Shown here one piece after another: positions 1,018-62,756 of a stretch of 64,000 bases of DNA (positions within the stretch are counted from its first letter, which is position 1; each line of letters begins with the position of its first letter). Position numbers and translations under genes: made by a program. The notes under the pieces are model-generated. The model did no database searches. It was given only the letters and a program-made list of their open reading frames with translations, and had not been told where the DNA came from. The DNA comes from Nanobdellota archaeon (GTDB lineage: Archaea > Nanobdellota > Nanobdellia > Woesearchaeales > DATGWN01). Location of the stretch: the NCBI GenBank assembly GCA_051819685.1, contig JBNJGI010000002.1:2638-66637 (forward strand), given 5' to 3'.

Positions 1018-1167
1018 GGCACATAAATTAATTTAATAATGATATTGCCTTGAAGTAGTTTTTGGATTTGAGGTAATAAATGGAACGAATAACAGGAGCC
1101 AAATTTAATTAATTTCATCCAGAAAACTTAACAATTGTTTGCAATATCACTCATTTTTATGGATGTG
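1018..1167 (+). mobile_element. R1 repeat (MITE-like, TIR-bounded), short form, copy A
   Basis: Left end is ggcacataaattaatttaataatgatattgccttgaag and right end is gcaatatcactcatttttatggatgtg. The core is homologous to the copies at 4215, 7293, 23290, 55183, 58965 and 62599. I define + orientation as GGCACAT..GATATTGCCTTGAAG at the 5' end. Confidence 0.75.
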
Positions 1168-1260
1168 ATTCTTTGTATTAAAAACATTACAATAGTCGAA
1201 GAAATAAATAAAGAGTATTTTATATTGCCAGAATCATCAAACCACATTTTAAATATTACG

Positions 1261-1330
1261 GAATTTGACAGAATTAGTCTTAGCCTAATTTCTGGGTTTT
1301 CTGCAAGAAAATATAAAATACAAAAATCTT
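1261..1330 (-). repeat. R2 repeat module, copy a
   Basis: atttgacagaattagtcttagcctaatttctgggttttctgcaag is the reverse complement of cttgcagaaaacccagaaatttggccagactaattctgtcaaat, which occurs at 23161-23212 and 55389-55433. Confidence 0.75.
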
Positions 1331-1377
1331 AGTAAATCCAAAACATTTTTAAAAAACTGATTCTAAAGTCCAGGAAG

Positions 1378-2232
1378 ATGGCAAAAAAATCTACAAAAAA
1401 TAAAGCTGGTAAAAAGAGCACTTCAAAAAAAGAAGGTTCTGGGTCCGGAAAAAAGTCATCTGTTAAGAAAAAGACAGTGAATAAATCTTCAAACAAAAAA
1501 AATACTAATGAATCTAAGGTAAAAGTTTCTGTAAACTCTACTGATGATTATGAAAAAGAATTGAAAAATATTGATAAAAAACCTTTTTTTAATTTTGATA
1601 TGCATCCTTTTGCTCTGGCCTCTCTTATAATAGTGCTTATTTTATTCATTTCAGCCGCTATATTAGCATATTTCAGCTTTAATTCAACTGTTGATGCTGT
1701 TTTAGTCGCTAAAAATGATAGCAGTGATAATAAAGATAATACAATTATAATAAAAGATCCATCAACAGAAATTGCTGATGAGATTAATAAAGAACAAAGA
1801 AACTCGTGCAAGGAAGTTTCATTCAATGTAGTGTGTGGATCAGAATATCCTGGAAACTCATGTAGTTATATTAATGATAATAATTTATCATCCCAATGGA
1901 TGGCTTCTGCAAGTTGCACATCAGGGAAAAAACCTTGTTCAGTGCTTAATTATATAACTGTTTCTTCAGAAAATAATTTCAGTAAGGTTAAGTTATGGAA
2001 CAGAGTTGAAAAAGATTATTATATAAATAGAGTATCTCTTACTTATAATAATATTTCTGAAGATTATCGCTATGGAGGACAGAATTATACAAAAACACCA
2101 TGGGTAATCGAATTGAAAGAACCTGCAAGTGCTGTAGAAATAAAAATTGTGGAAATTGTAGGTATAGGAAGGAATTACCTATCGGGAATCAGTGAGATAG
2201 AGCTTTATAAAAAAGGATGTAAAAACCCTTAA
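1378..2232 (+). CDS. hypothetical membrane-anchored protein (Lys/Ser-rich N-terminus, one TM, Cys-containing extracellular domain)
   Basis: ORF track, with AGGAAG before the ATG. It has a TM segment FALASLIIVLILFISAAILAYF. The C-terminal ...YLSGISEIELYK is reminiscent of discoidin/galactose-binding-like domains (weak). Confidence 0.6.
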   Translation: MAKKSTKNKAGKKSTSKKEGSGSGKKSSVKKKTVNKSSNKKNTNESKVKVSVNSTDDYEKELKNIDKKPFFNFDMHPFALASLIIVLILFISAAILAYFSFNSTVDAVLVAKNDSSDNKDNTIIIKDPSTEIADEINKEQRNSCKEVSFNVVCGSEYPGNSCSYINDNNLSSQWMASASCTSGKKPCSVLNYITVSSENNFSKVKLWNRVEKDYYINRVSLTYNNISEDYRYGGQNYTKTPWVIELKEPASAVEIKIVEIVGIGRNYLSGISEIELYKKGCKNP

Positions 2233-2238
2233 TTTCTT

Positions 2239-3228
2239 ATGTCTGATGTATTTTTTAGTAGGAAGATTGAAAAAATACTTGAAAAAATAAATCCTAAAGA
2301 TCTTGGTAATAATATAGGTTTAAAAGTACATTTTGGGGAAAAAGGATGCGATACTTATATTGATCCTGAAATTGTTAAAAAAATTTTTGATAAAGTGTCT
2401 GGAAACAATACTTCTCTTATAGAATGTAATGTTTTATATAAAGGAAGCAGGACTAAAACCAAGGACCATATAAAAACTGCAAAAGAACATGGTTTTAATT
2501 TTGCTCAGATAGATATCCTTGATGATGAGGGTGATATAAAGGTTGATATTGATAATGGTATTGTTAAAGAGGCAAAAATTGGTAAAGGTATAAAGAAATA
2601 TGATTCTATGATTGTCATATCACATTTTAAAGGTCATATACTTACTGGTTATGGAGGAGCATTTAAGAATATAGGGATGGGTCTTGGAAGCAGAGCAGGA
2701 AAATTACATATGCATTCTGATACAAAACCTTATATAGATATTGATAAATGTGTAGGTTGTGGTTTATGTGCTGAAAATTGTGATTTTGATGCTATTAAAA
2801 TAAATGGGAAAGCAAAAATTAATGAAAATAAATGTTCAGGATGTGCTATGTGTATTTCAACATGCCCTTATAATGCTGTAAGGATACCATGGGGAGGATC
2901 TTCTAGTGAAGAAGTGCAAAAAAAGATTATTGATTATACTGAAGCAGTTTTTAAATTAATACCTAAGGGGAAAGTAATTTACATAAATGTTTTAGAAAAC
3001 ATAACTTCTTTGTGTGATTGTGTAGGTAAGAAGCAAGAACCTATAATGAAAGATATAGGATTTCTTATAAGTAAAGACCCGGTTTCAATAGATAAAGCTT
3101 CACTTGATCTTGTTGATAAATATTCCTGCGGTAAATTCACAGAAAAAAGTGTTGATTTTTCTATACAAACATCTTATGCAGAAGAAAAAGGGTTGGGAGA
3201 AGAAGATTATGACCTTATTGAAATTTAA
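2239..3228 (+). CDS. DUF362 domain protein with 2x[4Fe-4S] ferredoxin insert
   Basis: Two CxxCxxCxxxCP motifs are present (CVGCGLCAENCD, CSGCAMCISTCP). The flanking ISHFKGH..GYGGAFKNIGMG is typical of the DUF362 family. Confidence 0.65.
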   Translation: MSDVFFSRKIEKILEKINPKDLGNNIGLKVHFGEKGCDTYIDPEIVKKIFDKVSGNNTSLIECNVLYKGSRTKTKDHIKTAKEHGFNFAQIDILDDEGDIKVDIDNGIVKEAKIGKGIKKYDSMIVISHFKGHILTGYGGAFKNIGMGLGSRAGKLHMHSDTKPYIDIDKCVGCGLCAENCDFDAIKINGKAKINENKCSGCAMCISTCPYNAVRIPWGGSSSEEVQKKIIDYTEAVFKLIPKGKVIYINVLENITSLCDCVGKKQEPIMKDIGFLISKDPVSIDKASLDLVDKYSCGKFTEKSVDFSIQTSYAEEKGLGEEDYDLIEI

Positions 3229-3556: not shown

Positions 3557-3557
3557 T

Positions 3558-4175: not shown

Positions 4176-4214
4176 AATAATTTATTTATACCTTTATATT
4201 TTTGATGGTTATAT

Positions 4215-4365
4215 GGCAAATATAATAAACGAGTTATGATGTTGCCTTGAAGTAGTTTTTTAATTTGCGGTAAGGAGTAGAACGACTTACAGGAGCGCAA
4301 ATTATATCAAGTTCACCCGGAGGACCGAACATTTGTTCGCAACATCACCATTTTTATAGATGTGC
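4215..4365 (+). mobile_element. R1 repeat, short form, copy B
   Basis: ggcaaatataataaacgagttatgatgttgccttgaagtag...tttgcggtaaggagtagaacgacttacaggagcgcaaa...gttcgcaacatcaccatttttatagatgtgc. It is flanked by tggttata(t/c) at 4206-4214 and 4366-4374. Confidence 0.8.
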
Positions 4366-4374
4366 TGGTTATAC

Positions 4375-4417
4375 GGCAAATATAATAAACGAGTTATGAT
4401 GTTAACTTATGAGATGC
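4375..4417 (+). mobile_element. R1 mini-element (left TIR joined to a right-TIR remnant), immediately after copy B
   Basis: ggcaaatataataaacgagttatgatgtt is identical to the left TIR of copy B. It is followed by aacttatgagatgc, which resembles the right-TIR tail. Confidence 0.6.
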
Positions 4418-5604: not shown

Positions 5605-5768
5605 CTCGTAAAATCATTAAATCTTGATTCTTAAGATGGTTTTATTTACGGACATTTTTAAATTTTTGTGAATTAATAAAAATATGAAAAAATTTCGGGA
5701 TAGCACACTGTGCCTTTTTATCGATACATTTATAAATAGAATTAAAAAATAAATCATTGGGTTGTTAC

Positions 5769-6404
5769 ATGATTAAAAAGGTTCAATTAGCGTTTAAAAA
5801 AATTTTTGAAAAATTCTTCAAAAAACACAAGAAAGTAAAATTAGGTCTCTACGGTCCGCCCAATGGTGGTAAAACTACTCTTGCAAACAGGGTATGTAAG
5901 GATTGGTTAGGTGAAGATATAGGGTCTGTATCTGATATGCCTCATGAAACAAGAGAGATAGCTATAAAGGAATCAATAAATATAAAAAATGATGATGGAA
6001 GGGAAATAAAGTTTAATCTGGTTGATACTCCTGGAATTGCTACAAAAGTTGATTTTGAGGATTTTCTTAAATATGGTTTAAAAGAAACAGAAGCTAAAAA
6101 AAGAGCCAAAGAAGCTACTAAAGGCATTATTGATTCCATCAAATGGCTTGATGAGATGGATTGTGTAATTGTTGTGGTAGATTCAACATTAGATCCTTAT
6201 TCTCAAGTAAATGTAACTATAATTGGAAACCTTGCTGCAAGAAACATACCCGTAGTTGTCGCAGCCAATAAGAATGACCTCAAGAAATCTAATGTGAAAA
6301 AGATAGAAGCTGCATTCCCTCAATATGAAGTTGTCGGTGTTTCTGCAAAAGAAGGAACTAACATGGACACATTCTACAAAAAATTGTTTAAGGTGATTGA
6401 ATGA
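5769..6404 (+). CDS. small GTP-binding protein (archaeal GTPase of the GTPase/DUF2073/Zn-ribbon operon)
   Basis: G1 GPPNGGKT, G3 DTPG, G4 NKND and G5 SAK are present. The track start at 5757 is TTG. I prefer the ATG at 5769 because tttataaata at 5729-5738 is a TATA-like box about 31-40 nt upstream. Confidence 0.75.
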   Translation: MIKKVQLAFKKIFEKFFKKHKKVKLGLYGPPNGGKTTLANRVCKDWLGEDIGSVSDMPHETREIAIKESINIKNDDGREIKFNLVDTPGIATKVDFEDFLKYGLKETEAKKRAKEATKGIIDSIKWLDEMDCVIVVVDSTLDPYSQVNVTIIGNLAARNIPVVVAANKNDLKKSNVKKIEAAFPQYEVVGVSAKEGTNMDTFYKKLFKVIE

Positions 6405-6799
6405 GTGGGAAAAATAAAAACTCCAAATCGCTTGTATTCGAATTTATGCAATTTTCTGAACTTAAAAAAATGTCTGTGGAAGAAAGAATCAAGACAATTA
6501 TAGATATAGTTAAAAGCAATAAAATAATATTGCTAGAAGGAAGATTCAAAAAACAGGAAGAAGCGCAATTGATCCAAACAACTATGGAATATATTGATAA
6601 TAAATTCAAAGGTATTGAAATTGCTGTAATAAATCCTTCTAAAGAGGAAGGCAGTTTCTTTAGTCGTCTGAAATCAAATATTGCTAATCTAATTTTAGGT
6701 GAAAGGGAAGGGTTTACTTTGATAGGACCTGCTACAATTATAAGGGATATAAAACAAGATTCTAAGAAACTGAATCAACTTTCGATAAGACTAGGATAA
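6401..6799 (+). CDS. conserved archaeal protein, probably DUF2073 family
   Basis: ATGA start/stop overlap with the GTPase gene. Size and position between the GTPase and the Zn-ribbon protein fit the conserved archaeal triad. The family call is from memory of that synteny. Confidence 0.45.
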   Translation: MSGKNKNSKSLVFEFMQFSELKKMSVEERIKTIIDIVKSNKIILLEGRFKKQEEAQLIQTTMEYIDNKFKGIEIAVINPSKEEGSFFSRLKSNIANLILGEREGFTLIGPATIIRDIKQDSKKLNQLSIRLG

Positions 6800-6802
6800 A
6801 AA

Positions 6803-7210
6803 ATGCCACACCAATGTGTAAGATGCGGAAAACTAATAGAAGACGGATCTAATGAGATTCTTCAGGGATGTAAAAATTGTGGAGGAAAGTTATTTTTCTT
6901 TATCAAGAAATCCAAGCTTAAGGAGATGGAGAATAAACCTGCTGAAAATCTTACTACAAAGGATAAGAAGCAGATAGAGAAAGATGTTGTTGATTTAATT
7001 GGAAAAGAATATAATCCTGATGCCCCAGTTATACTTAATTTTGAAAGCGTTCGCGTGTCTAAACCAGGGAAATTTGAACTTGATCTTGTAAGTCTTTTCG
7101 ATCAGAAAAAACCTTTGGTTTATAAGCTTGAAGAAGGGAAATACATGATAGATGTTGCTACAACTTTTGAACATGCTTCAAAAGGCAGTAAAAGAATCAA
7201 AGAAAAGTGA
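6803..7210 (+). CDS. Zn-ribbon containing protein (COG3364/DUF2072-like)
   Basis: N-terminal CxxC...CxxC ribbon: MPHQCVRCGKLIEDGSNEILQGCKNCGGKLFFF. Confidence 0.55.
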   Translation: MPHQCVRCGKLIEDGSNEILQGCKNCGGKLFFFIKKSKLKEMENKPAENLTTKDKKQIEKDVVDLIGKEYNPDAPVILNFESVRVSKPGKFELDLVSLFDQKKPLVYKLEEGKYMIDVATTFEHASKGSKRIKEK

Positions 7211-7292
7211 TAGATAAATATATTATATCTTTTTTATTTTTTAATTTTTTCTAAATTATAAAAAAATTTCAGTCAAAGATATTAGATAGAGG

Positions 7293-7445
7293 GACACAAT
7301 CACAAAAATGAGTGATATTGCGAACAACTCTTCGGCCTCTGGACGAACTTTATTTAATTTACGCTCCTGTAAGTCGTTTTACTCCTTACTGCAAATTAAA
7401 AAACTACTTCAAGGCAATATCATCATTAATTTTGTTACATGTGCC
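7293..7445 (-). mobile_element. R1 repeat, short form, copy C, with perfect 8-bp flanking duplication
   Basis: gacacaatcacaaaaatgagtgatattgcgaac...cttcaaggcaatatcatcattaattttgttacatgtgcc. gatagagg occurs at 7285-7292 and again at 7446-7453, directly abutting both ends. Confidence 0.85.
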
Positions 7446-7491
7446 GATAGAGGTATAAATTTTTAAATAATTTATAATTATTATAATTAAA

Positions 7492-8790
7492 ATGGAACTT
7501 GCAAATGCTAAGGGAACGAAAGATTACTTACCTGAGGAAATGATAATTCTAAATGAAATCATGACAAGATTAAGGATATATTTTGAAAGAGCAGGATTTA
7601 ATCCTCTTACAACACCTGCGATAGAAAAAATGGATGTTTTGGGTGCAAAATATGCAGGAGGATCTGAAATCCTTAAAGAAACATTCCAATTTAAAGACCA
7701 AGGTGAAAGAGAACTAGGGCTTAGATATGATTTGACAGTTCCTTTTGCAAGGGTTACAGGACAAAACCCTGAATTAAAATTTCCTTTTAAAAGATACCAA
7801 ATGGAAAAAGTATATCGTGATGGTCCTGTCGGACCAGGAAGATACAGAGAATTCTGGCAGTGTGATATAGATATGGTTGGTACAAAATCAATGAAAGCTG
7901 AAGCAGAAGTTTTATCGATTGCTGAGGAATTTTTCAAATCTTATGATTTTAATCCACTTATAAAATTAAATAATAGAAAAATTATGAATTCACTTCTTGA
8001 CAACTTTAAAATCGATAATAAAACTCCAGTAATACTGGTTATAGATAAATTTCTTAAAATGGATAAAAAAGATCTTGTAGGAGAACTTATTGATATAGGG
8101 TATGAAAAAGAAGAATCATCTGAAATTATAGATTTATTTGAAAGCTTAAGTAAATTAGATTCGAATGAAGAGAAGATTAAAGCCTGTAAAAAAATGATTA
8201 AAAGTGATGAAGGTAAAGAAGGGATAGAAGAGATAGAGCAGATACTTACTTATTGTAATAATTATGGTTTGAGTTCTGTTAGATTCGACCCGATACTTGC
8301 AAGAGGTCTTAATTATTATACTGGCCCTGTGTTTGAAACAGTGCTCGAAGGAAATAAAATAACGAGCTGTGTGTGTGCGGGCGGGCGCTTTGATAAGATG
8401 ATTGGAGATTTTCTTGAAAGCAAAGAAGAATTCCCTGCTGTTGGTTTAAGTTTTGGTGTAAGCAGGATATTTGATGCACTTATAGCAGATAATAAAATAA
8501 AAAACTCAAAAACCGTAACTCAAGTATTGGTTATTTCTATGAATCAGGATAAGTTTGCTATGCAGGTAACAAAAAAACTTAGAAGTAAAGGTATAAATAC
8601 AGAAATTGATATTATGGAGAGGAAAATAAGAAAAAATCTTGATTATGCTAATGGGATGAAGATACCTTTTGCAGTTATAATTGGAGAAAATGAAGTTGAA
8701 TCAGGGAAAATAACTTTAAAAAACCTTGATACCGGCGAACAAAAAAATATAGGGGTTGAAGAAGCAGGAAAAATTATCTTAAATACTTGA
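7492..8790 (+). CDS. hisS: histidine--tRNA ligase
   Basis: Class II aaRS motifs LRYDLTVPFAR, YREFWQCDID and AGGRFD, plus a C-terminal anticodon-binding domain. Confidence 0.9.
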   Translation: MELANAKGTKDYLPEEMIILNEIMTRLRIYFERAGFNPLTTPAIEKMDVLGAKYAGGSEILKETFQFKDQGERELGLRYDLTVPFARVTGQNPELKFPFKRYQMEKVYRDGPVGPGRYREFWQCDIDMVGTKSMKAEAEVLSIAEEFFKSYDFNPLIKLNNRKIMNSLLDNFKIDNKTPVILVIDKFLKMDKKDLVGELIDIGYEKEESSEIIDLFESLSKLDSNEEKIKACKKMIKSDEGKEGIEEIEQILTYCNNYGLSSVRFDPILARGLNYYTGPVFETVLEGNKITSCVCAGGRFDKMIGDFLESKEEFPAVGLSFGVSRIFDALIADNKIKNSKTVTQVLVISMNQDKFAMQVTKKLRSKGINTEIDIMERKIRKNLDYANGMKIPFAVIIGENEVESGKITLKNLDTGEQKNIGVEEAGKIILNT

Positions 8791-8813: not shown

Positions 8814-8988
8814 GTTGAAGGAAAGGAGGGAAGTATAAAACCCCTTTGAAAAAGTCAATTTGTAAAGGCTAATTATTTTGTCTGGGTGAAATTGATTGAA
8901 TTTGCGCTCCTGTAAGTCTTTTAACTCCTTACCACAAATTCAAATATTGCTTCAATGTAATATCATCACTCATTTTGTTATATGTGCC
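8814..8988 (-). mobile_element. R1 repeat, truncated long form, copy D
   Basis: It begins inside the long-form insert (gttgaaggaaaggagggaagtataaaacccctttgaaaaagtcaatttgtaaaggctaattattttgtctgggtgaa, compare 25200-25275). It ends with cttcaatgtaatatcatcactcattttgttatatgtgcc. The right-TIR end is missing. Confidence 0.75.
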
Positions 8989-9033: not shown

Positions 9034-10176
9034 ATGACTTTTAAAATTAAATCAGAAGAAGGGGATGCAAGAGCCGGAATTCTTGAATTGCCTTCTGGGA
9101 AAAAATTAAAGACGCCTTTTTTTATGCCGGTAATGACAAAAGGTGTAGCTAAAAATGTAACTCAGGATATGTTGTTAGAAGCAGGAACTCAATGTGGAAT
9201 ATCCAATTCTTTCGTTTTGACATTAAAACCAGGGGTTGATTTTATAAAAAAAGCAGGAGGTCTGCATAAATTAGCTGCGTGGGAAGGAGGATATTTTACA
9301 GACAGTGGTGGCTTTCAGATGCTTAGTAAACAATTCTTCAGAAAAATAAATGATGAAGCAGTTATATTTATGGATCCTTTTTCAGGGAAAAAATATTCTT
9401 TATCCCCTGAAGAATGTATGGATAATCAATTAAATATTGGAAGTGATGTTGCTATGGCTTTAGATCATGTTCCTTCATTTTATGGTATGACTGAAAAAAA
9501 GATGAAAGAGCACCTTAGAAGGACACATTTATGGGCTGAAAGATGTAAAAAATATCATGATGAAAATTCAGAGAAAAAACAATTGCTTTTTGGAATTTCT
9601 CAAGGTGGAGCTTATCCTGATTTAAGGAAAGAAAGTGCCTCTTATATTAATTCTCTTGATTTTGATGGTATTGCTTTTGGTGGATTTTGTTTTGGTGAAA
9701 GCGATTCTGCAATGTATGAAGGGATTGAAATTTCTAAAAGGGAATGTTCAAAAGATAAACCTATCTATGTAATGGGTATGGGGAATCCTATTCAGATTCT
9801 TAATGCTGTTGCTTTAGGGTGTGATATATTTGATAGTACTTTTCCTACTATGAATGGAAGGAATGGAACTTTATTTACACAAAATGGTTTGTTAAGAATT
9901 AAAAGAAGTGAATATAGGCACGATCTTAGGTCTATTGAAGAGAGTTGTGATTGTTATGCATGTAAAAATTATTCGCGAGCTTACATTAGATATCTTTTAG
10001 ATATGAATGAAAATTTAGGGAAGACTTTAGCTACAATACATAATATAAGGTTTATTCATAAGCTTCTTGAAGATGCAAGAGAAAGTATACTTAACGGTAG
10101 TTTTGAAGATTTCAAAAGGAAAATAATACAAGCTTATGATAAGAAAGATGATAATATCTTTAAGTATGGTGTATAA
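9034..10176 (+). CDS. tgt: tRNA-guanine transglycosylase (archaeosine/queuine tRNA-ribosyltransferase catalytic domain)
   Basis: TPFFMPVMTKG, FTDSGGFQ, and the Zn site CDCYACKNYSRAYIRYL...H. Confidence 0.85.
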   Translation: MTFKIKSEEGDARAGILELPSGKKLKTPFFMPVMTKGVAKNVTQDMLLEAGTQCGISNSFVLTLKPGVDFIKKAGGLHKLAAWEGGYFTDSGGFQMLSKQFFRKINDEAVIFMDPFSGKKYSLSPEECMDNQLNIGSDVAMALDHVPSFYGMTEKKMKEHLRRTHLWAERCKKYHDENSEKKQLLFGISQGGAYPDLRKESASYINSLDFDGIAFGGFCFGESDSAMYEGIEISKRECSKDKPIYVMGMGNPIQILNAVALGCDIFDSTFPTMNGRNGTLFTQNGLLRIKRSEYRHDLRSIEESCDCYACKNYSRAYIRYLLDMNENLGKTLATIHNIRFIHKLLEDARESILNGSFEDFKRKIIQAYDKKDDNIFKYGV

Positions 10177-15876: not shown

Positions 15877-15926
15877 GCAAATCCAAACATCACTTCAAGG
15901 CAATATCATTATTAATTCAACACAAT
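15877..15926 (-). repeat. R1 fragment (left-TIR end only)
   Basis: gcaaatccaaacatcacttcaaggcaatatcattattaattcaacacaat matches the last ~50 nt of copy C (gcaaattaaaaaactacttcaaggcaatatcatcattaatttt...). Confidence 0.6.
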
Positions 15927-19512: not shown

Positions 19513-19549
19513 TGACATATAAGATAAAATAGCGATATTGCCTTTTAAT

Positions 19550-22682: not shown

Positions 22683-22734
22683 ACTTGAAGACAAAAATCA
22701 ATTCTTTGCAGTATCACTCATTTTTTGAAAGTGC
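22683..22734 (+). repeat. R1 degenerate mini copy
   Basis: acttgaagacaaaaatcaattctttgcagtatcactcattttttgaaagtgc contains cttgaag plus a right TIR. Confidence 0.5.
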
Positions 22735-23088: not shown

Positions 23089-23140
23089 TGAAAGTAAAGA
23101 AGGAAATTAAGTTTATAATTTTTTTGTTTATATAGTTAGC

Positions 23141-23212
23141 GCATAAGATTATTATATTTTTATATTGCCTTGCAGAAAACCCAAAAATTTGGCTAGACTA
23201 ATTCTATCAAAT
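23141..23212 (+). repeat. R2 repeat module, copy b
   Basis: gcataagattattatatttttatattgccttgcagaaaacccaaaaatttggctagactaattctatcaaat aligns with 55361-55433. Confidence 0.8.
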
Positions 23213-23220
23213 TTAGCAAT

Positions 23221-23285
23221 AGTTAAACTATTAGCGTTTAATTATTATGCGCAATATAAATAAATTTTATTTATGTCGGCGACTA
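23221..23285 (+). repeat. R3 repeat module, copy a
   Basis: agttaaactattagcgtttaattattatgcgcaatataaataaattttatttatgtcggcgacta aligns with 48638-48703, 49104-49169 and the reverse complement of 52306-52371. Confidence 0.8.
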
Positions 23286-23289
23286 ATAT

Positions 23290-23443
23290 GGCACAATTAC
23301 AAAATTAGTGATATTTCGAACGAAAATTAAGTCCTTAGAGTAAACTGGATTGAATTTGCGCCCCTTGTAAGTTGTTTCACTTCTTACCATAAATTCAAAA
23401 AATACTTCAAGACAATATCATCACTTATTTTATTGTAAGTGTC
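23290..23443 (-). mobile_element. R1 repeat, short form, copy G
   Basis: ggcacaattacaaaattagtgatatttcgaacg...tgaatttgcgccccttgtaagttgtttcacttcttaccataaattc...cttcaagacaatatcatcacttattttattgtaagtgtcg. Confidence 0.8.
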
Positions 23444-23461
23444 GTTTATATAAAAATCAGA

Positions 23462-25058: not shown

Positions 25059-25375
25059 GGTACATCCATAAAAATGAATGATGTTGCGAACTATAGTTCA
25101 GTAAACTGTTCCGGCACGCTGTCAAGGAAAACCTTTCGGCGGTTTCAACAAGTAGAAACTTTTAGTGCGGTATAGTCACTTTGTTCCTGGCCTTAAACAA
25201 GTTTAAGGAAAGTAGAAGGGTATAAAACCCCCTGAACAAGTCAATTTGTAAAGGCAAATTATTTTGTCCGGGTGAAATTGATTGAATTTGCGCTCCTGTA
25301 GACCGTTTCACTCCTCACCGCAAGTTAAAAAAACACTTCAAGACAATATTATCATTTAATCTTATTCTATGAGCC
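25059..25375 (-). mobile_element. R1 repeat, long form (~317 nt), copy H
   Basis: The ends are as in short copies (ggtacatccataaaaatgaatgatgttgcgaac ... cttcaagacaatattatcatttaat...gagcc). About 190 nt of GC-richer sequence (25093-25266) replaces the ~14-nt aaatgttcggtcct segment of the short copies. Confidence 0.85.
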
Positions 25376-46970: not shown

Positions 46971-46992
46971 ATTTATAAATATTATGTTATTA

Positions 46993-47013
46993 TAGTAGAC
47001 GACATAAATAAAG
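46993..47013 (-). repeat. R3 fragment
   Basis: tagtagacgacataaataaag is the reverse complement of the R3 3' motif (tttatttatgtcg.c.acta). Confidence 0.45.
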
Positions 47014-48562: not shown

Positions 48563-48624
48563 GGTACATAAAATAAAACAAGTGCTGATATTTAAAGCAA
48601 TATCACTCATTTTTATACATGTGC
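48563..48624 (+). mobile_element. R1 mini-element (left TIR directly joined to right TIR)
   Basis: ggtacataaaataaaacaagtgctgatattt + aaagcaatatcactcatttttatacatgtgc. Confidence 0.7.
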
Positions 48625-48637
48625 TCAAATTTCGTAA

Positions 48638-48703
48638 AGTTAAACCATTAGTGTTTAATTATCCTGCGCCATATAAAATATACTTTATTTATTTCGTCTA
48701 CTA
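48638..48703 (+). repeat. R3 repeat module, copy b (left member of the 66-bp direct repeat pair)
   Basis: agttaaaccattagtgtttaattatcctgcgccatataaaatatactttatttatttcgtctacta differs at one position from 49104-49169. Confidence 0.9.
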
Positions 48704-48707
48704 TATA

Positions 48708-49088
48708 ATGAAAAAACTTTTATATCTTTATAACATTCATAATTTTATGGTAATAGATGATTTTGTTTTGAAAGATCCCCTGTTTCATGTTGGAGAAAGG
48801 GTTCTTGATTACGAGAAAATTGTGAAAGCTTCTGATGAAGATTTTGCAAGATTTTATTTAGAATTGATGATTGAATATAGAGATAAAGATGGCTGGTGGA
48901 GTGATGGTAAAATACCTGAATGTAATGAATGTCATAAAGAAATTCAGAGACCTGAAGACTTAAGGCGTTATCATGGCCTTTCAATGCACCCTTCTTGTTT
49001 TAGACAATATTATACAAGAGAAGGGGATGATGAGGGTATAATGGATAAATATTGGCAAAGAGTTGCAAATTTAGTCTTGGATTCTTGA
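48708..49088 (+). CDS. small hypothetical protein with CxxC...HxxC zinc-finger-like motif
   Basis: PECNECHKEIQRPEDLRRYHGLSMHPSCF. The track ORF starts at a GTG at 48582 inside repeat DNA. The ATG at 48708 (MKKLLYLYN...) lies ~30 nt after the R3 TATA-like catataaaata. An alternative start (MVIDDF) is at 48747. Confidence 0.55.
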   Translation: MKKLLYLYNIHNFMVIDDFVLKDPLFHVGERVLDYEKIVKASDEDFARFYLELMIEYRDKDGWWSDGKIPECNECHKEIQRPEDLRRYHGLSMHPSCFRQYYTREGDDEGIMDKYWQRVANLVLDS

Positions 49089-49103
49089 ATTTATTCGAAA
49101 AAT

Positions 49104-49169
49104 AGTTAAACTATTAGTGTTTAATTATCCTGCGCCATATAAAATATACTTTATTTATTTCGTCTACTA
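49104..49169 (+). repeat. R3 repeat module, copy c (right member of the 66-bp direct repeat pair)
   Basis: agttaaactattagtgtttaattatcctgcgccatataaaatatactttatttatttcgtctacta. Confidence 0.9.
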
Positions 49170-49215
49170 AAATAAAACATCTTTTCGCAATAGTACTCAT
49201 TTTTGTAAGTATGCC
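49170..49215 (+). repeat. R1 right-TIR fragment following R3 copy c
   Basis: aaataaaacatcttttcgcaatagtactcatttttgtaagtatgcc matches the right-TIR consensus gcaatatcactcatttttgtgaatgtgcc. Confidence 0.6.
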
Positions 49216-50298: not shown

Positions 50299-50608
50299 GC
50301 ATGTGTATTTAAAAGAATGAGAATATTGTATTAAGTATTTATTGAATTTGCAGTAAGAATTGAAACGACTTACAGGAGAGCAAATTCAACCAAGTTCACC
50401 CGGACAAAATAATTTGCCTTTACAAATTGACTTGTTCGGGGGTTTTATACCCTCCTACTCTCCTTAAACTTGTTTAAGGCCAGGAAAAAAGTGACTATGC
50501 CGTGCTAAAAGTTTCTACTTGTTGAAACCGCCGAAAGGTTTTCCTTGACAGCGTGCCGGAACAGTTTACTGAATTTTTGTTCGCAATATCACTAATTTTA
50601 TGAATTTG
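50299..50608 (+). mobile_element. R1 repeat, long form (~310 nt), copy I
   Basis: It is the reverse complement of copy H over its whole length. The 40-nt tccggcacgctgtcaaggaaaacctttcggcggtttcaac is identical in both. Ends are gcatgtgtatttaaaagaatgagaatattg ... tcgcaatatcactaattttatgaatttg. Confidence 0.85.
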
Positions 50609-52270: not shown

Positions 52271-52305
52271 TTTTTTACCTCCTTATTATAAAAATAAATT
52301 ATATT

Positions 52306-52371
52306 TAGTCAACGACATAAATAAAAAGCATTTTATATTGCGCAGAAAAATTAAACACTAATGGTTCAACT
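52306..52371 (-). repeat. R3 repeat module, copy d, between nifS and iscU
   Basis: The reverse complement agttgaaccattagtgtttaatttttctgcgcaatataaaatgctttttatttatgtcgttgacta aligns with the other R3 copies. Confidence 0.8.
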
Positions 52372-52402
52372 ATTGCGGAATATAATTACTAAATATTATT
52401 CG

Positions 52403-53545: not shown

Positions 53546-53880
53546 TTTTTTATAGTGCATTTTTCAGTGCAAAGATCACACTCATCCCTTAGTTCTATAT
53601 TTGAACAGTTTGTTTTCACATGTTTTTTAGCTAATTCCATCAAAGGTCTTATCGTTTCTCCATTAAGGGAATAAATTATTTTTTTTCCTTCCCTTTTCGA
53701 ATCGACAAAATGACATCTTGCTAAAAGCTTAAGATTGTGACTTACTTTGCTTTGCTCTTCTTCTGTTTTTTCAGATATCTCATTAACTGAAAGACTTTCA
53801 TTTGTCAATGATTCAAGTATTTTCAATCTTGTCTCATTTGCTATTGTATCAAAAAAGGGTTTATATGTTGATATTCTCAT
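53542..53880 (-). CDS. ArsR-family winged-helix regulator
   Basis: FDTIANETRLKILESLTNESLSVNEISEKTEEEQSKVSHNLKLLARCHFV, plus C-terminal Cys residues (CSNIELRDECDLCTEKC). Confidence 0.7.
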   Translation of the reverse strand: MRISTYKPFFDTIANETRLKILESLTNESLSVNEISEKTEEEQSKVSHNLKLLARCHFVDSKREGKKIIYSLNGETIRPLMELAKKHVKTNCSNIELRDECDLCTEKCTIKK

Positions 53881-53982: not shown

Positions 53983-55140
53983 TCAGGATATTTTGTCAAG
54001 AAATGAAGGTTTTCTTAATTTTTTCACAAATTTTTTTATTAGTTTAATTGTATAATCAATCTCTTCTTCTGTATTGTATCTGCTTAAAGTTAATCTTATC
54101 GAAGCCTCTGCTTGTTTATTATCAAGACCAATTGCTTTTAAAACATAAGAAGGTTCAGAGCTTGCTTCAGAACATGCGCTTCCAGTTGATGAAGATATAT
54201 TTTTAGAGTCTAACATTGCACCTAAAGTATCACCTGCTATATCTTCGATAAGAAAATTAGTATTATTACATAGTCTTTTAGTATCCGAGCCATTAAGATT
54301 AGTTCCAGGTATTTCTAAAATCCCTGAAATCAACTTATTCCTTATTTTAGATATATGGTTTGTATGTTTTTTCTTATCACTTTGTTTAACAGCTTCTGCG
54401 AAACCGACAATTCCAGGTACATTTTCAGTCCCAGACCTTAAATTAAATTCATGCCCCCCACCATGTTGCCATGATTCTATTTCAGTACCTTTTCTTATAT
54501 ATAAAGCACCTACACCTTTAGGTCCATGTATCTTATGTGAATTTAGAGTTATTAGATCAATATTTTGCTTTTGTACATCGATTTCAGTTTTTGTATAAGA
54601 TTGACATGCGTCAGTATGAAAGTATATTTTATTATCTTTACATATTTTTCCTATTTCTTCTATATCATTTATAGTGCCTATTTCATTATTTCCATGTATT
54701 ACTGAAACTAATATTGTATCTTTTCTTATTTTTGATTTGAGATCTTCTAATGAAATAAAACCTTCTTTATCGACATCAAGATATGTCACTTCAAATCCCT
54801 GATTTTCAAGCCATTTGCATGAATTTAAAACACATTTGTGCTCTACTTTTGTGGTTATTATATGTTTTTTTTTGTTTGTAAATGCGATACTTTTTAATGC
54901 AAAATTATTGGATTCCGTTCCTCCTGAGGTAAATATTATCTCTTCTGGTTGAGCATTTATCGACTTTGCTATAGTTTTTCTTGCTTTTTCTATAGATTCC
55001 TTAGCATCGATACCTGAAGTGTGAGCAGAGGAAGGGTTTGCATATTCTTTAATAAAATAAGGTTTCATAGCTTCAAGAACTTTTTCATCAACTTTAGTGG
55101 TAGCAGCATTATCCAAATATATTTTTTTTAATCTCATCAT
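53983..55140 (-). CDS. nifS: cysteine desulfurase (NifS/IscS type), paralog 2
   Basis: It carries the same motif set (SGGTESNN, HTDACQ, NSHKIHGPKGVGALY, RSGTEN, STGSACSE). It shares a 50-nt identical tract with paralog 1. Confidence 0.85.
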   Translation of the reverse strand: MMRLKKIYLDNAATTKVDEKVLEAMKPYFIKEYANPSSAHTSGIDAKESIEKARKTIAKSINAQPEEIIFTSGGTESNNFALKSIAFTNKKKHIITTKVEHKCVLNSCKWLENQGFEVTYLDVDKEGFISLEDLKSKIRKDTILVSVIHGNNEIGTINDIEEIGKICKDNKIYFHTDACQSYTKTEIDVQKQNIDLITLNSHKIHGPKGVGALYIRKGTEIESWQHGGGHEFNLRSGTENVPGIVGFAEAVKQSDKKKHTNHISKIRNKLISGILEIPGTNLNGSDTKRLCNNTNFLIEDIAGDTLGAMLDSKNISSSTGSACSEASSEPSYVLKAIGLDNKQAEASIRLTLSRYNTEEEIDYTIKLIKKFVKKLRKPSFLDKIS

Positions 55141-55182
55141 ATAATATAAACTTATATTTTCTTTTAAAGTTTGCTATTGCTT

Positions 55183-55336
55183 AGCACATACAACAAAATA
55201 AGTGATAATATTGCCTTGAAGTAATTTTTGAATTTGCGGTAAGGAGTAGAACGACTTACAGGAGCGTAAATTCAATCAAGTTCGCCCGGAGGAACGAACA
55301 TTTGTTCTCAACATCGCTTACTTTTTTAATTGTGTC
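55183..55336 (+). mobile_element. R1 repeat, short form, copy J, with perfect 8-bp flanking duplication
   Basis: agcacatacaacaaaataagtgataatattgccttgaag...tttgcggtaaggagtagaacgacttacaggagcgtaaa...ctcaacatcgcttacttttttaattgtgtc. tattgctt occurs at 55175-55182 and 55337-55344. Confidence 0.85.
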
Positions 55337-55344
55337 TATTGCTT

Positions 55345-55433
55345 GGCACATTTATTCAACGACATAAGATTGTTATATTTTTATATTGCCTTGCAGAAAA
55401 CCCAGAAATTTGGCCAGACTAATTCTGTCAAAT
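55345..55433 (+). repeat. R2 repeat module, copy c, with its own GGCACAT-type end
   Basis: ggcacatttattcaacgacataagattgttatatttttatattgccttgcagaaaacccagaaatttggccagactaattctgtcaaat begins immediately after the right flanking duplication of copy J. Confidence 0.8.
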
Positions 55434-55547
55434 ATTGACACTTAAAATAAAATAAGTTATATTGTTACAATAAAACATTATCACTAATTTTATTTTATAT
55501 GCTCGAAAACCAACAATTATAAAAACAAGTAGTATTGAAATTAGAAT

Positions 55548-58929: not shown

Positions 58930-58964
58930 ATAATCAAATTTTTTAGCCCATTTATATATGTTCC

Positions 58965-59121
58965 GGATATAACACTTAAAATAAAATAAATGATGATATT
59001 GCCTTGAAGTAGTTTTGAATTTGCGGTAAGGAGTGAAACGACTTACAGGAGCGCAAATTCAATCAAGTTCGCCCGGAGGAACGAACATTTATTCGCAATA
59101 TCACTCATTTTTGTGAATGTT
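58965..59121 (+). mobile_element. R1 repeat, short form, copy K
   Basis: ggatataacacttaaaataaaataaatgatgatattgccttgaag...tttgcggtaaggagtgaaacgacttacaggagcgcaaa...gcaatatcactcatttttgtgaatgt. Confidence 0.8.
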
Positions 59122-59122
59122 T

Positions 59123-59192
59123 CGGATATAACACTTAAAATAAAAATCAATAATATTATCTTGAAGCAACATAACTTATTTTATGGATGTGC
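59123..59192 (+). mobile_element. R1 mini-element directly following copy K
   Basis: cggatataacacttaaaataaaaatcaataatattatcttgaag + caacataacttattttatggatgtgc. Its left TIR shares the idiosyncratic variants of copy K. Confidence 0.65.
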
Positions 59193-59291
59193 TGAATATA
59201 AAGTATATACAATAAAGTTGATGATATTATATTACTGTTGGCAGACTTTAATTGAGACGAAGTAATAAAATTTTTTATGATTTCCAGAAAA

Positions 59292-60004: not shown

Positions 60005-60967
60005 ATGGGGGTTAAATCAATGGCTGGAGGATACATCCGAAAATGTCCTGAATGTGGAAGTCTGAATTTAATGTATAATAAGAATAAAGGTGAAGTCATT
60101 TGTAAAGAGTGTGGCCTTGTTCTTGAAGATAAAATGGTCGATTTTGGTCAGGAATGGCGTGAATTCGATTCCGATTCTGGTGAACAAAAAAGAAGGACTG
60201 GCGCTCCTATGACCTATACACAGTATGATAAAGGTCTTGGGACTGAAGTAGGACACAAATCAGATCTTCATACATTAGGAGGATCTAACAGGAACAAATT
60301 CTATAGATTAAGAAAATGGCAATATAGGATAAGTACAGCGATAGAAAGAAATCTTAAACTTGCATTAGGCGAACTAAAAAGAGTTTCATCATTTCTTAAA
60401 TTACCGAAAGGTGTAGAAGAAGAAGCTGCAAGAATTTATACTTTAGCAGTACAAAGAGGGCTTGTAAGAGGAAGGAGCATGGAAAGTGTTGTAGCAGGAA
60501 CATTGTATGCAGCATGCAGAAGACATGAAGTTCCACGAACTTTAGATGAATTAAGTGAATCATCAGGTATAGAAAAAAAAGAAATTGGAAGAACTTACAG
60601 ATTTATAACAAGAGAGCTTCAGATAAAAATACTTCCTTCAAACCCTGCTGATTATGTTGCAAGATTCAGTTCAAGTCTTAAGTTAAGTGCGGAAGCACAA
60701 TCATATGCTGTTGAAGTGCTTGATAAAGCGCAAGGTATCGAACTTACTTCTGGAAGAGGTCCTACAGGAATTGCAGCAGCAGCTTTATATGTAAGCGCAT
60801 TATTACATTCAGAAAAAAGGACTCAAAGAGAAGTGGCTGATGTAGCTGGTGTAACTGAAGTAACAATAAGAAACAGATATAAGGAATTGCTTGAAGAGCT
60901 GGATCTGGAAGAAGAGATTAAGAAACTCAAAAAATCAGAAAATAAAAACAAAAATAAAAAAAAATAA
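60005..60967 (+). CDS. tfb: transcription initiation factor IIB (TFB)
   Basis: Zn ribbon CPECGS...CKECG, a B-finger/linker, and two cyclin folds (...GRS.ESVVAGTLYAACR..., ...GRGPTGIAAAALYVSAL...). An alternative in-frame start at 60020 is preceded by GGGGGT. Confidence 0.9.
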   Translation: MGVKSMAGGYIRKCPECGSLNLMYNKNKGEVICKECGLVLEDKMVDFGQEWREFDSDSGEQKRRTGAPMTYTQYDKGLGTEVGHKSDLHTLGGSNRNKFYRLRKWQYRISTAIERNLKLALGELKRVSSFLKLPKGVEEEAARIYTLAVQRGLVRGRSMESVVAGTLYAACRRHEVPRTLDELSESSGIEKKEIGRTYRFITRELQIKILPSNPADYVARFSSSLKLSAEAQSYAVEVLDKAQGIELTSGRGPTGIAAAALYVSALLHSEKRTQREVADVAGVTEVTIRNRYKELLEELDLEEEIKKLKKSENKNKNKKK

Positions 60968-60979
60968 GAGGAGATATAG

Positions 60980-61291
60980 ATGAAATCATTTAAATTTACA
61001 TTTGGAAGTGTCCTTTTGATTACTTTGTTATCTTTAGGATTGCTTACAGGTTGTACTGATTCTGTAAAAAACACAGGACAATGTCAAGTTGATGAAATTC
61101 TTTTTGAAGGTACAGGAAAATGTGTTGGAACTGATATGATAAATGTATGTACGCCAGAACAAAAACAGGCTGAAGCTTGTACTATGCAATATGATCCTGT
61201 CTGTGGAAATGACGGAAAAACATATAGTAACAGTTGTGTAGCATGTTCAGAAGGTGCTGATACATGGATTGAAGGCGAATGCCCTGAATAG
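60980..61291 (+). CDS. lipoprotein with Kazal-type serine protease inhibitor domain
   Basis: Lipobox [28 protein letters not shown] fits C-x7-C-x6-Y-x3-C-x2-C exactly. A strong SD (AGAGGAG) lies upstream. Confidence 0.75.
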
Positions 61292-61294
61292 AAG

Positions 61295-61714
61295 ATGGAT
61301 ATAAATTTCGGTCAACAAGGATCTCAAAAGAACGCTCAAAATAATAATCAAGAAAGCGCTCTTGAAGAAATAGCTGTATTAAGCAAAAGAATAAAGCTTA
61401 TAGAAAATAGCTTAAGAGGTATTAAGAATTCTTTGGAAAACCTTGAAAATAATTTCGTAACTCTCAACAAGGATGCCAGAAGGGATATAAAATCTCTTGA
61501 AGAAGAGAATGATGAATTGAAAAACACAATCTGGAACCTCAAAGAGAATATGAAGAAAATGAGTAAAGATTTCCAGAATGTTGCATCTCAAGATGATTTT
61601 AAAGTAATGCAGAAATATCTTGACTTCTGGAATCCTGTGAAATTTACAACACCTCAGATGGTGAAAAGGATAGTAAAAGACGAACTGGAATCTTTAAATA
61701 AAGATAATGATTAA
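61295..61714 (+). CDS. hypothetical coiled-coil protein
   Basis: ORF track, with heptad-rich sequence (LEEIAVLSKRIKLIENSLRGIKNSLENLENN...). Confidence 0.5.
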   Translation: MDINFGQQGSQKNAQNNNQESALEEIAVLSKRIKLIENSLRGIKNSLENLENNFVTLNKDARRDIKSLEEENDELKNTIWNLKENMKKMSKDFQNVASQDDFKVMQKYLDFWNPVKFTTPQMVKRIVKDELESLNKDND

Positions 61715-62442
61715 TTCATTTTTATATTATTAAAAAAATCTTCTTTTTTAGTATTCAGTCCTATTTTTTTAAAATAATTTACAATATTCCTTATATCTCT
61801 TTCAAGATACTCTTTTGCATGATAATCATCTTTGGACGTTGCCTGACTAAAATCTATTAAAACCGGTTTTTTATCATGATATAGAATATTATATTCAGAA
61901 AGGTCTGCATGGACAATTCCTGCATCATTATAAAGTTTGGATATTTGGTTAATCACTTCATTATAGCACTCTTTTGCCTCTTTTCTATTTTCAAAAACCA
62001 CATTTTTAAGCTGTGGTGCAATTTCTTTATCTAGACCTATGAACTCTTGGACTATTATATTCCCTTTATAGATAAAAGGTGTAGGAACTCTTATACCTTT
62101 ATTTCTTGCCAAAAGAATATTTCTATATTCCCTTTGCACCCATGCAAGAACAACATCTCTTTTTCTTGGCTTTATACTGTTGAATCTTGGATCGCTTCTT
62201 ATATAATTTATCATCTTTCTGAAATTACAGTTTTCAAGACGATATATTTTTACAACAACCTTGCTTCCATCATTTTTTTCTGCAAGAAAAAGGTTGGCTT
62301 CTTTCCCGATAGGTAAGGAGTGTGAAATCTTTTCAAAATAACCTGCATTTTCAAGATAATGGATATTATTAAGTGCGAACTTATCAAAAACATTGCTGTA
62401 AGTCTTCCAGTCTTCCCGTGATTTTTTTCTTGCCATAAACAA
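61711..62442 (-). CDS. rio1: RIO-type serine protein kinase
   Basis: GKEANLF, VVKIYR, and HADLSEYNILY...PVLIDFSQA form the RIO catalytic and metal-binding loops. Confidence 0.8.
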   Translation of the reverse strand: MFMARKKSREDWKTYSNVFDKFALNNIHYLENAGYFEKISHSLPIGKEANLFLAEKNDGSKVVVKIYRLENCNFRKMINYIRSDPRFNSIKPRKRDVVLAWVQREYRNILLARNKGIRVPTPFIYKGNIIVQEFIGLDKEIAPQLKNVVFENRKEAKECYNEVINQISKLYNDAGIVHADLSEYNILYHDKKPVLIDFSQATSKDDYHAKEYLERDIRNIVNYFKKIGLNTKKEDFFNNIKMN

Positions 62443-62598
62443 AAGATTATTCTTGCATTTATAAGTTTTATATTATCTTATTAAAAATTAATTATCAAAA
62501 AAAATTGCTCGCTTTTCAGATTAAGCCTATTTCATTATCTCAAGTTATTATAATTAATATTATTAGCTGTTAAAAAGCATCGTAAAACTTTAATTTTA

Positions 62599-62756
62599 AA
62601 GCACATTCACAAAAGTGAGTGATATTGCGAACAAATGTTCAGCCTTCTAGGTGAACTTGATTAAATTTCCGCTCCTGTAAGTCGTTTCACCCCTTACTAC
62701 AAATCCAAAAACTATTTCAAGGCAATATAAAAATATAACAATCTTATGTCGCCTAC
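62599..62756 (-). mobile_element. R1 repeat, short form, copy L, with variant (R2-type) left end
   Basis: gcacattcacaaaagtgagtgatattgcgaacaaatgttcagcc...ccgctcctgtaagtcgtttcaccccttactacaaatcc...tttcaaggcaatataaaaatataacaatcttatgtcgcc. taatttta occurs at 62591-62598 and 62757-62764. Confidence 0.75.

Follow-up and report, generated by a model that had tools for sequence, protein, structure and literature searches.

The window, the whole stretch of DNA analysed here (64,000 nt), encodes TFIIB at 60005-60967 and a HisRS with the same sequence as a MAG protein from a 'Nanobdellota archaeon'; the host is archaeal, an uncultured member of the Nanobdellota (DPANN). Between its genes lies a family of short repeats, R1, which the initial annotation had proposed by direct reading and which proved to be real: an nhmmer profile built from the seven short copies recovered all seven (E 1e-37 to 1e-47) at 1018-1167 (+), 4215-4365 (+), 7294-7445 (-), 23290-23442 (-), 55184-55335 (+), 58973-59121 (+) and 62601-62751 (-). 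The same profile also matched both ~315-nt long copies (25061-25373, -; 50304-50605, +), the truncated long copy (8860-8988, -, a boundary that a long-form profile extends to 8814) and most of the fragments, with weaker matches at 15877-15917 (E 3e-5), 48597-48624 and 49176-49214 (E 0.01). Together, the 64 kb contain 10 substantial copies and about 7 minis or fragments, all between ORFs (Table 1).

Some entries of the earlier inventory have changed. The fragments at 15877 and 49170 were recovered by nhmmer, while the one at 22683-22734 is discernible by eye only; another candidate fragment, 19535-19543, is 9 nt long. The stretch at 4375-4417, earlier counted as an independent mini, instead belongs to a 38-nt stretch that duplicates the neighbouring copy's flank and left end. 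Target-site duplications (TSDs), the mini at 55439-55506, the left tip at 55346-55361 and the related family R2 are absent from that inventory.

Table 1. Copies and fragments of R1 and R2 in the window.
Feature	Position	Strand	Evidence and remarks
R1 full short copy	1018..1167	+	nhmmer E 3e-37; without clear TSD; R2 copy next
R2 full copy	1190..1333	-	follows R1 copy 1018
R1 full short copy	4215..4365	+	nhmmer E 7e-46; TSD TGGTTATA 4206-4213 / 4366-4373
Second TSD and left TIR, then degenerate right-end-like stretch	4366..4417	+	38-nt duplicate of 4206-4243, 1 mismatch
R1 full short copy	7293..7445	-	nhmmer; 8-bp TSD GATAGAGG 7285-7292 / 7446-7453; 46 nt upstream of HisRS start
R1 long form, truncated	8814..8988	-	long-model positions 7-176; 45 nt upstream of tgt start
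R1 fragment, inner left TIR and core start	15877..15926	-	nhmmer E 3e-5
Degenerate R1 right-end remnant	22683..22734	+	by eye only; no nhmmer match
R2 full copy, abuts R1 23290	23135..23289	+	composite 23135-23443, 9-bp GTTTATATA at 23126-23134 / 23444-23452
R1 full short copy, inner partner in R2+R1 composite	23290..23443	-	nhmmer E 7e-39
R1 long form, 317 nt, with ~165-nt internal module	25059..25375	-	nhmmer and long-form profile
R1 mini, 62 nt, left TIR fused directly to right TIR	48563..48624	+	nhmmer, TIR matching
R2 right half, directly upstream of small gene 48708-49088	48623..48702	+	–
R2 right half, downstream of small gene 48708-49088	49096..49170	+	98% identical to 48638-48703
R1 right-end fragment	49176..49214	+	nhmmer E 0.01
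R1 long form, 310 nt	50299..50608	+	nhmmer and long-form profile
R2 partial copy (right half)	52305..52383	-	–
R1 full short copy	55183..55336	+	nhmmer; TSD (C)TATTGCTT 55174-55182 / 55336-55344
R1 left tip (16 nt, 55346-55361), then R2 left half	55345..55437	+	–
R1 mini, 68-nt hairpin	55439..55506	+	fold z -5.4
R1 full short copy	58973..59122	+	nhmmer E 1e-47; TSD CGGATATAA 58964-58972 / 59123-59131
R1 mini directly after shared TSD of 58973 copy	59132..59192	+	then TGAATATAA, 7/9 positions equal to that TSD
R1 copy with R2-type left tip (chimera)	62600..62756	-	9-bp TSD TAATTTTAA 62591-62599 / 62757-62765

Ends, interior and size classes

The imperfect terminal inverted repeats (TIRs) of ~30 bp described earlier are present in every copy, with 18-26 matching positions per copy. 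They are bipartite, combining a conserved tip, (G/A)(G/A)CAC, with a conserved inner box (TGATATTGCC / GCAATATCA); the tip reads GGCACAT(A/G)TAACAAAA, with GG at about half of tips. In searches, the left-end consensus of the initial annotation found 3 sites at no more than 3 mismatches (0 expected), and the pattern CACAT-N8-22-GATATTGC found 5 (0.03 expected).

By length, R1 falls into long (~315 nt), standard (~150 nt) and mini copies (62-70 nt, two ends only), three classes that are related via internal deletions. None has coding capacity: lengths are 62-317 nt, and the ORFs are at most 49 aa and inconsistent in frame. Copies diverge from one another by 13-29%, and unevenly so, the outer left TIR having a mean pairwise identity of 65% vs 85% for the core (permutation p = 0.001), a feature of R1 that is unusual for a MITE. 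The long copies at 25059 and 50299, which differ by a 1-nt indel, are likewise 95% identical over their internal 200 nt and 62-72% identical at their ends. The GTTCG/CGAAC/GTTCG triplet proposed for the core does occur, but exactly so in 2 copies only.

Target-site duplications and the spread of R1 and R2

Exact direct repeats of at least 8 bp (8-9 bp) are found at the tips of five of the seven short copies, whereas such repeats flank 0.48% of random 150-nt intervals (with +/-3 nt slack allowed), and a sixth short copy (23290) sits within an R2+R1 composite that is itself flanked by a 9-bp repeat. They are 8 bp long at 4215 and 7293, 8 or 9 bp at 55183, and 9 bp at 58973, at 62600 and around the composite. 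Since the sequences vary by site (TGGTTATA, GATAGAGG, CTATTGCTT, CGGATATAA and TAATTTTAA), they represent genuine duplications, as opposed to a single target hit repeatedly; as TSDs, they argue that R1 has transposed and is a non-autonomous DNA element. In three cases a full copy continues into the TSD and then another left end (TSD-E1-TSD-E2); the array at 4215 is a 38-nt local duplication, which a one-off simple insertion explains incompletely.

Intact TSDs would be improbable if each copy had decayed by at least 7-10% since insertion (P <= 0.03-0.003). Perfect TSDs alongside 13-29% divergence therefore suggest that R1 was recently active, the insertions deriving from source copies that were already diverse.

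The sibling family R2 (~155 nt) has the same end architecture as R1. Two mixed insertions, an R2-left/R1-right chimera and an R2+R1 composite, are each bounded by a separate 9-bp duplication, and these mixtures, together with the shared ends, indicate that R1 and R2 are probably mobilised by one enzyme. No transposase was found among the 50 window ORFs scanned, as the initial annotation had stated, so the copies would be non-autonomous. An autonomous element with R1-type ends was not found in the window or in the metagenome and viral contigs scanned, where pattern scans for such ends gave chance matches only, and no R1 copies outside the contig were found in ~75 kb of relatives, one metagenome pattern scan, viral contigs, plasmids or phages. 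The closest sampled relatives have 70-78% protein identity and are not syntenic; their homologous genes lack the repeats.

It is very likely, in our view, that R1 is a non-autonomous TIR DNA transposon (MITE), one of the two readings offered earlier. It has properties typical of one, being short and non-coding with TIRs, TSDs and dispersed intergenic copies in both orientations, and the assignment draws on TSDs at five of seven short copies (vs 0.5% of random sites), on the composite and its TSD, and on the lack of a transposase among the 50 ORFs. The copies would be mobilised by a DDE-type transposase whose gene lies elsewhere, in the genome or in the population; it would recognise the ~30-bp bipartite ends and cut at the tips, and staggered cuts 8-9 bp apart at integration would then leave the observed TSDs.

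Alternative origins of the repeats

Spread by local duplication or recombination (unequal crossing-over, hairpin-driven slippage), with no transposase involved, would account for the 38-nt duplicate of flank and left end adjoining the 4215 copy, for the junction-like duplicates on the flanks of the 58965 copy and for the grouping of R1 and R2 pieces in the same gaps. We nevertheless regard it as scarcely credible: the copies are scattered over 62 kb in both orientations, a distinct 8-9-bp duplication lies exactly at the tips of each, which is not a product of local duplication, and the copies at 7293 and 62600 are isolated, with clean TSDs and no adjacent copy. The other reading offered earlier, that R1 consists mainly of structured ncRNA genes or cis-regulatory RNAs whose inverted ends and core hairpin are selected helices, fared poorly and now seems very improbable. 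The core hairpin (TTTGCG-GTAAG...CTTAC-AGGAG-CGCAAA) does form, in 91.5% of cells over 10 copies; conservation is higher in the core and inner ends than in the outer left end, and higher in the interior of the two long copies than at their ends; and two of the copies clearly outdo their shuffles in folding (z -2.2 and -3.6). However, Rfam gave no matches at gathering scores (best permissive 14-17 bits vs thresholds of 35-86), the z-scores of the other five of the seven copies are ordinary (-0.3 to -1.6), as are those of the long form (-0.4 and -1.3), and the RNAalifold covariation term is +0.53, with 4 of 39 pairs compensated and many broken. Within the core hairpin there is only one double change, equalled by 143 of 500 shuffles; the hairpin is inherited and its covariation is not significant, although with 7-10 copies both covariation tests have low power. 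R1 also lies in both orientations relative to neighbouring genes, and its copy number arises by transposition, per the TSDs.

Placement bears on whether the host has made use of the repeats. As noted earlier, copies occur in both orientations and none lies within an ORF of at least 100 aa; the statement that R1 fills most long intergenic regions holds for R1 and R2 together, which occupy 12 of the 19 gaps of at least 200 nt. For eleven repeat ends the distance to a downstream start codon is 33-52 nt, with TATA-like boxes beside them, several copies start 9-36 nt past a stop codon, and T5 runs, which could serve as archaeal termination signals, occur on both strands of the repeats. All of this, with the uneven conservation along the element, would suit MITEs that the host has recruited for regulation or insulation (for instance as terminators separating tandem or convergent genes, or as upstream promoter elements), selection then explaining both the conserved core and the 33-52 nt placement. 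Yet occupied gaps minus their repeats measure only 53-135 nt, like shorter unoccupied gaps (one 517-nt gap keeps 359 nt), so that nearly any tolerated site has a promoter and a stop codon nearby; orientation bias is absent, and in the relatives the homologous genes lack the repeats. Co-option is accordingly quite unlikely. In the favoured MITE reading, the copies persist in the narrow space between an upstream stop codon and a downstream promoter, with the TATA-like box intact, at sites that could be either tolerated or else preferred. It is also unlikely, if a little less so, that R1 and R2, near which no transposase was found, are the non-autonomous partners of a transposase lineage undescribed in DPANN, or of one acting in trans from a host, plasmid or virus, with the unusually conserved interior a functional cargo or cis-acting module spread beside promoters and the TSD-E1-TSD-E2 arrays the outcome of end-targeting insertion. 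The cargo idea is based on interiors that are 85% identical in the short copies and, over 200 nt, 95% identical between the two long ones, whose ends are 62-72% identical.

Relation to known mobile elements

Prokaryotic MITEs include the Correia elements of Neisseria and SM1-SM4 of Sulfolobus. R1 resembles prokaryotic MITEs in being 60-320 nt long and non-coding, with imperfect TIRs and a fixed-length TSD, and in its numerous copies, which are scattered between genes in both orientations and fall into deletion-derived size classes. It differs in having no detectable sequence relative in the collections searched, in a core that outdoes the outer left end in conservation, and in a sibling, R2, that swaps ends with it.

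REPs, which are G+C-rich palindromes of 20-40 bp moved by Y1 (RAYT) transposases without target duplications, are a further point of comparison. Like REP/BIME sequences, R1 is intergenic, palindromic, clustered and hairpin-capable; its length of 150 nt, its A+T-rich ends and its 8-9-bp TSDs do not fit that class.

The IS26 end is GGCACTGTTGCAAA, with which R1 shares the tip GGCAC and a CAAA(A) 5 nt further on. An 8-bp TSD in at least 2-3 copies may be another likeness to IS6/IS26, and IS6-type elements are common in archaea. The IS6/IS26 family has MITE derivatives, MITEHarch3 and MITEBth2 (PMC7986276, PMC6807381), and its ends carry the motifs 'GG', 'cTGTt' and 'caaa' (PMC7986276) and a near-universal G at position 7 (PMC6807381). 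In R1, by contrast, position 7 is T, the TGT motif is absent, several TSDs are 9 bp, and no IS6-type transposase (DDE_Tnp_IS240) was found in the window. Membership of IS6/IS26, whose ends have TIRs of 14-20 bp, GG at the first two positions and G at position 7, is doubtful for R1, with its TIRs of ~30 bp and GG at about half of tips; its likeness to IS6 ends is weak.

In a census of MITEs, the highest archaeal densities were found in DPANN, Ca. Altiarchaeum having 146 MITEs/Mb and a Woesearchaeal genome 105/Mb (PMC11602168). The density of R1, extrapolated from 10 full, long or truncated copies in 64 kb, is similar to or above these figures. The sequence of R1 is new, but as a mobile element it would be unremarkable, one more of a familiar type, in a group of archaea whose dense MITE load has already been published (PMC11602168).

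Target-site duplications and the architecture of R1

R1, the family of ~150-nt intergenic repeats in this Nanobdellota archaeon, shows every testable property of a MITE, and that reading is supported, on stronger evidence than the initial annotation had. Five of the seven short copies carry identical 8–9-bp direct repeats exactly at their tips, a feature that went unnoticed when the copies were first listed. Repeats of at least 8 bp occur, with equal ±3-nt slack, at 0.48% of random 150-nt intervals in the window, so that five of seven is far beyond chance. Since their sequences vary from site to site, they are duplications made by insertion rather than a common target sequence: the signature of transposase-mediated insertion with staggered cuts. 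A sixth copy (23290-23443) adjoins a copy of R2, the sibling family, and the resulting R2+R1 composite (23135-23443) is itself bounded by GTTTATATA. An 8-bp AAAACATT repeat near the other full R2 copy lies away from the tips and was not counted as a target-site duplication (TSD).

We trained an nhmmer profile on the seven short copies; it recovered all seven where they had originally been placed (E 1e-37 to 1e-47) and also matched the two long copies, the truncated one and several fragments. The left-end consensus quoted earlier was found at 3 sites with at most 3 mismatches (0 expected), and a scan of the window for the tip plus inner box, CACAT-N8-22-GATATTGC, gave 5 occurrences against 0.03 expected. 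Every R1 copy lies between ORFs of at least 100 aa, in both orientations. The copies are 71–87% identical in pairwise comparison, each with imperfect terminal inverted repeats (TIRs) of ~30 bp; R1-type ends have the form (G/A)(G/A)CAC...TGATATTGCC. Some details of the initial annotation fared less well: the segment 4375-4417, taken for an independent mini, falls instead within a 38-nt duplicate of the neighboring copy's flank and left end; the fragment 22683-22734 is recognizable by eye alone and escapes the profile; the one at 19535 is 9 nt long; and the GTTCG/CGAAC/GTTCG triplet assigned to the core is exact in just two copies.

There are three size classes: long (~315 nt), standard (~150 nt) and mini (62–70 nt). 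In the long form a ~165-nt module replaces the GGAACGAACATTT stretch of the short form, and the sequence beyond the module is also unlike the short form. This module is relatively G+C-rich and hairpin-rich, with no Rfam match and a fold z-score that is not significant. As a nested element it is doubtful, its own TIRs being absent and its borders showing just a 5-bp CCGGA repeat; coding potential of the long form was rejected, as it holds short ORFs only, unconserved between copies.

Coordinates of R1 and R2 elements, with the target-site duplications of short R1 copies (named by start)
Feature	Position	Strand	TSD
R1 short copy	4215		TGGTTATA
R1 short copy	7293		GATAGAGG
R1 short copy	55183		(C)TATTGCTT
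R1 short copy	58973		CGGATATAA
R1 short copy	62600		TAATTTTAA
R1 long form	25059-25375
R1 long form	50299-50608
R1 long form, truncated	8814-8988
R1 mini, two ends only	48563-48624
R1 mini, two ends only	55439-55506
R1 mini, two ends only	59132-59192
R2 full copy	23135-23289	+
R2 full copy	1190-1333	-
R2 partial copy	55362-55437
R2 partial copy	52305-52383
R2 partial copy	48623-48702
R2 partial copy	49096-49170
R2 partial copy	46985-47012
TSD-full copy-TSD-second left end array	4206-4417
TSD-full copy-TSD-second left end array	55174-55361
TSD-full copy-TSD-second left end array	58964-59200

Structured RNA and known transposable elements

The other reading originally entertained, a family of structured RNAs, draws on the core hairpin, which does exist: it is paired in 91.5% of cells across ten copies. 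Its single double change, however, is equaled by 143 of 500 shuffles, and the hairpin is inherited, with no visible sign of selection. For the seven copies RNAalifold computed a covariation term of +0.53; of 39 pairs, 4 are compensated and many are broken. Fold z-scores were -0.3 to -1.6 for five short copies, -2.2 and -3.6 for the other two, and -0.4 and -1.3 for the long form; Rfam gave 0 matches at gathering scores, and permissive scans of one long and one short copy gave nothing near threshold. We therefore set the structured-RNA reading aside, as Rfam, RNAalifold, pair counting in the core hairpin and fold z-scores all fail to support it; nothing that we saw favors an RNA gene family, at the low power afforded by 7–10 sequences. 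A tRNA- or tmRNA-derived origin was also rejected, ARAGORN having found no tRNA or tmRNA genes.

Among known mobile elements, R1 recalls the IS6/IS26 family in its GGCAC tip, in the CAAAA five bases further on and in its 8-bp duplications; archaea often carry that family, and MITEs such as MITEHarch3 derive from it (PMC7986276, PMC6807381). However, R1 has neither the near-universal G at position 7 nor the TGT motif, and its TIRs are ~30 bp rather than 14–20 bp (PMC7986276, PMC6807381); only about half of the R1 tips carry GG, and several of the duplications are 9 bp. Given these disagreements we do not place R1 in IS6/IS26, a claim of membership from its ends being rejected for the missing G7 and TGT motif and the overlong TIRs. 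Nor is R1 of the REP/BIME type, being long, A+T-rich and flanked by target duplications. In a census of MITEs across prokaryotes, DPANN genomes, a Woesearchaeal one included, already stand out with the highest densities of any archaea (PMC11602168).

Scans of 50 ORFs against Pfam or NCBIfam models yielded no transposase, as first claimed for the window, so the R1 copies are non-autonomous. Searches beyond the window gave no partner: blastn against plasmids and phages returned zero matches, scans of viral contigs gave chance matches or zero, and a 19-nt core pattern run against metagenome sequence gave three matches, all chance. The histidyl-tRNA synthetase (HisRS, 7492-8790) is 100% identical to MGM5483365.1 (NCBI, “MAG: Nanobdellota archaeon”), which is encoded on a 67.9-kb contig, and a scan of genome contigs reached HisRS relatives only 45–46% identical. 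Closer contigs were reached via HisRS (70–72% aa) and the small gene 48708-49088 (74–78% aa); R1, R2 and the R1-type TIR are absent from ~75 kb of these nearest sampled relatives (70–78% protein identity, non-syntenic).

R2, shared ends and the age of the copies

R2 (~155 nt) is represented by two full copies and at least four partials, often beside R1 copies. Its ends are built like those of R1: A/T-rich sequence separates a CGACATAA tip from an inner TATATTGC box; the R2 tips are TAGTnnnCGACATAA, and the inner box is common to both families. The element at 62600-62756 is a chimera, joining an R2-type left tip to an R1 core and R1 right end, and it has kept its 9-bp duplication. The duplications on this chimera and on the R2+R1 composite suggest that one transposase acts on the ends of both families. 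Two 66-nt direct repeats (98% identical; 48638-48703 and 49104-49169), which are R2 right halves, bracket ORF 48708-49088, a 126-aa hypothetical protein (in the MAG annotation the 113-aa ACQER9_00640), and R1 end pieces sit outside them. The relatives' homologues of this ORF (74–78% aa) are without the repeats; the arrangement resembles a recent duplication or a capture of the composite-transposon type.

R1 copies differ from one another by 13–29%, yet most TSDs are perfect. Post-insertion decay of 7–10% per copy would leave five or more of the seven 8-bp pairs perfect with P = 0.03–0.003; a decay of ~2% fits the data. Most of the divergence is thus older than insertion, which suggests diverse source copies and fairly recent activity. 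Conservation is also uneven along the element: the outer left end has 65% mean pairwise identity versus 85% for the inner left end and core (permutation p = 0.001), and the long copies at 25059 and 50299 are 95% identical over an internal ~200 nt (25085-25300 and 50375-50585) and 62–72% at the ends. This may reflect a bipartite end (a tip and an inner binding box, the spacer between them being free to vary), homogenization of the interiors by gene conversion, end swapping like that of the R1/R2 chimera, or selection acting on the core.

After three full copies the duplicated target recurs together with a second left end (at 4366, 55337 and 59123). Such arrays could come from end-targeted insertion or from unequal crossing-over between target duplications. 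The one at 4215, whose 38-nt duplicate has one mismatch, resembles a local duplication. Next to the 58973 copy is a diverged mini that has a degenerate flank of its own, which looks like a case of one copy inserting into an older copy's flank.

Genomic setting and implications

The window is A+T-rich (26–34% G+C), and the host is an archaeon, as its TFIIB gene (60005-60967) confirms. R1 and R2 together make up ~2.9 kb, about 4.5% of the 64 kb, and occupy 12 of the 19 gaps of at least 200 nt. Once the repeats are subtracted, fully bounded occupied gaps shrink to 53–135 nt, near the shorter unoccupied gaps, with one exception (62443-62959, 359 nt left). Eleven repeat ends precede a start codon by 33–52 nt and leave a TATA-like box in the flank intact, and several copies start 9–36 nt past the upstream stop codon. 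Promoter-proximal sites are either the sole tolerated ones in a compact genome or preferred by an enzyme that favors promoter-proximal A+T-rich DNA.

Several neighboring genes deserve mention. The copy at 7293-7445 lies just downstream of a GTPase gene followed by OapB and OapC (origin-associated protein) genes (5757-7210), a cluster that adjoins the replication origin in other archaea; no Orc1/Cdc6 gene is among the window ORFs scanned. The tgt gene (9034-10176) scores 379 bits with the bacterial queuosine-type tRNA-guanine(34) transglycosylase model versus 144 bits with the archaeosine type, in an archaeal genome. There are two AAA_14/DUF4143 ATPase genes (14103-15311 and 50681-51784), one adjoining a long R1 copy, and two class-V aminotransferase/cysteine desulfurase paralogues (52403-53560 and 53983-55140; 74% DNA identity over 300 nt). 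The largest gene is a single 2897-aa ORF on the minus strand (37414-46107).

R1 is real and new as a sequence, and the kind of element is already well documented; it adds an example and leaves the current picture unchanged. DPANN genomes are small and streamlined, yet most of the extra length in the long intergenic gaps is R1 and R2 sequence. That TSDs are intact while the copies beside them have diverged strongly indicates recent, ongoing transposition out of a diverse source pool, which is useful for strain typing, for tying these symbionts to viruses or plasmids with the same MITEs, and for asking how reduced genomes come to keep mobile DNA. Lying directly upstream of core promoters and just past stop codons, the copies are also candidates for rewiring expression.
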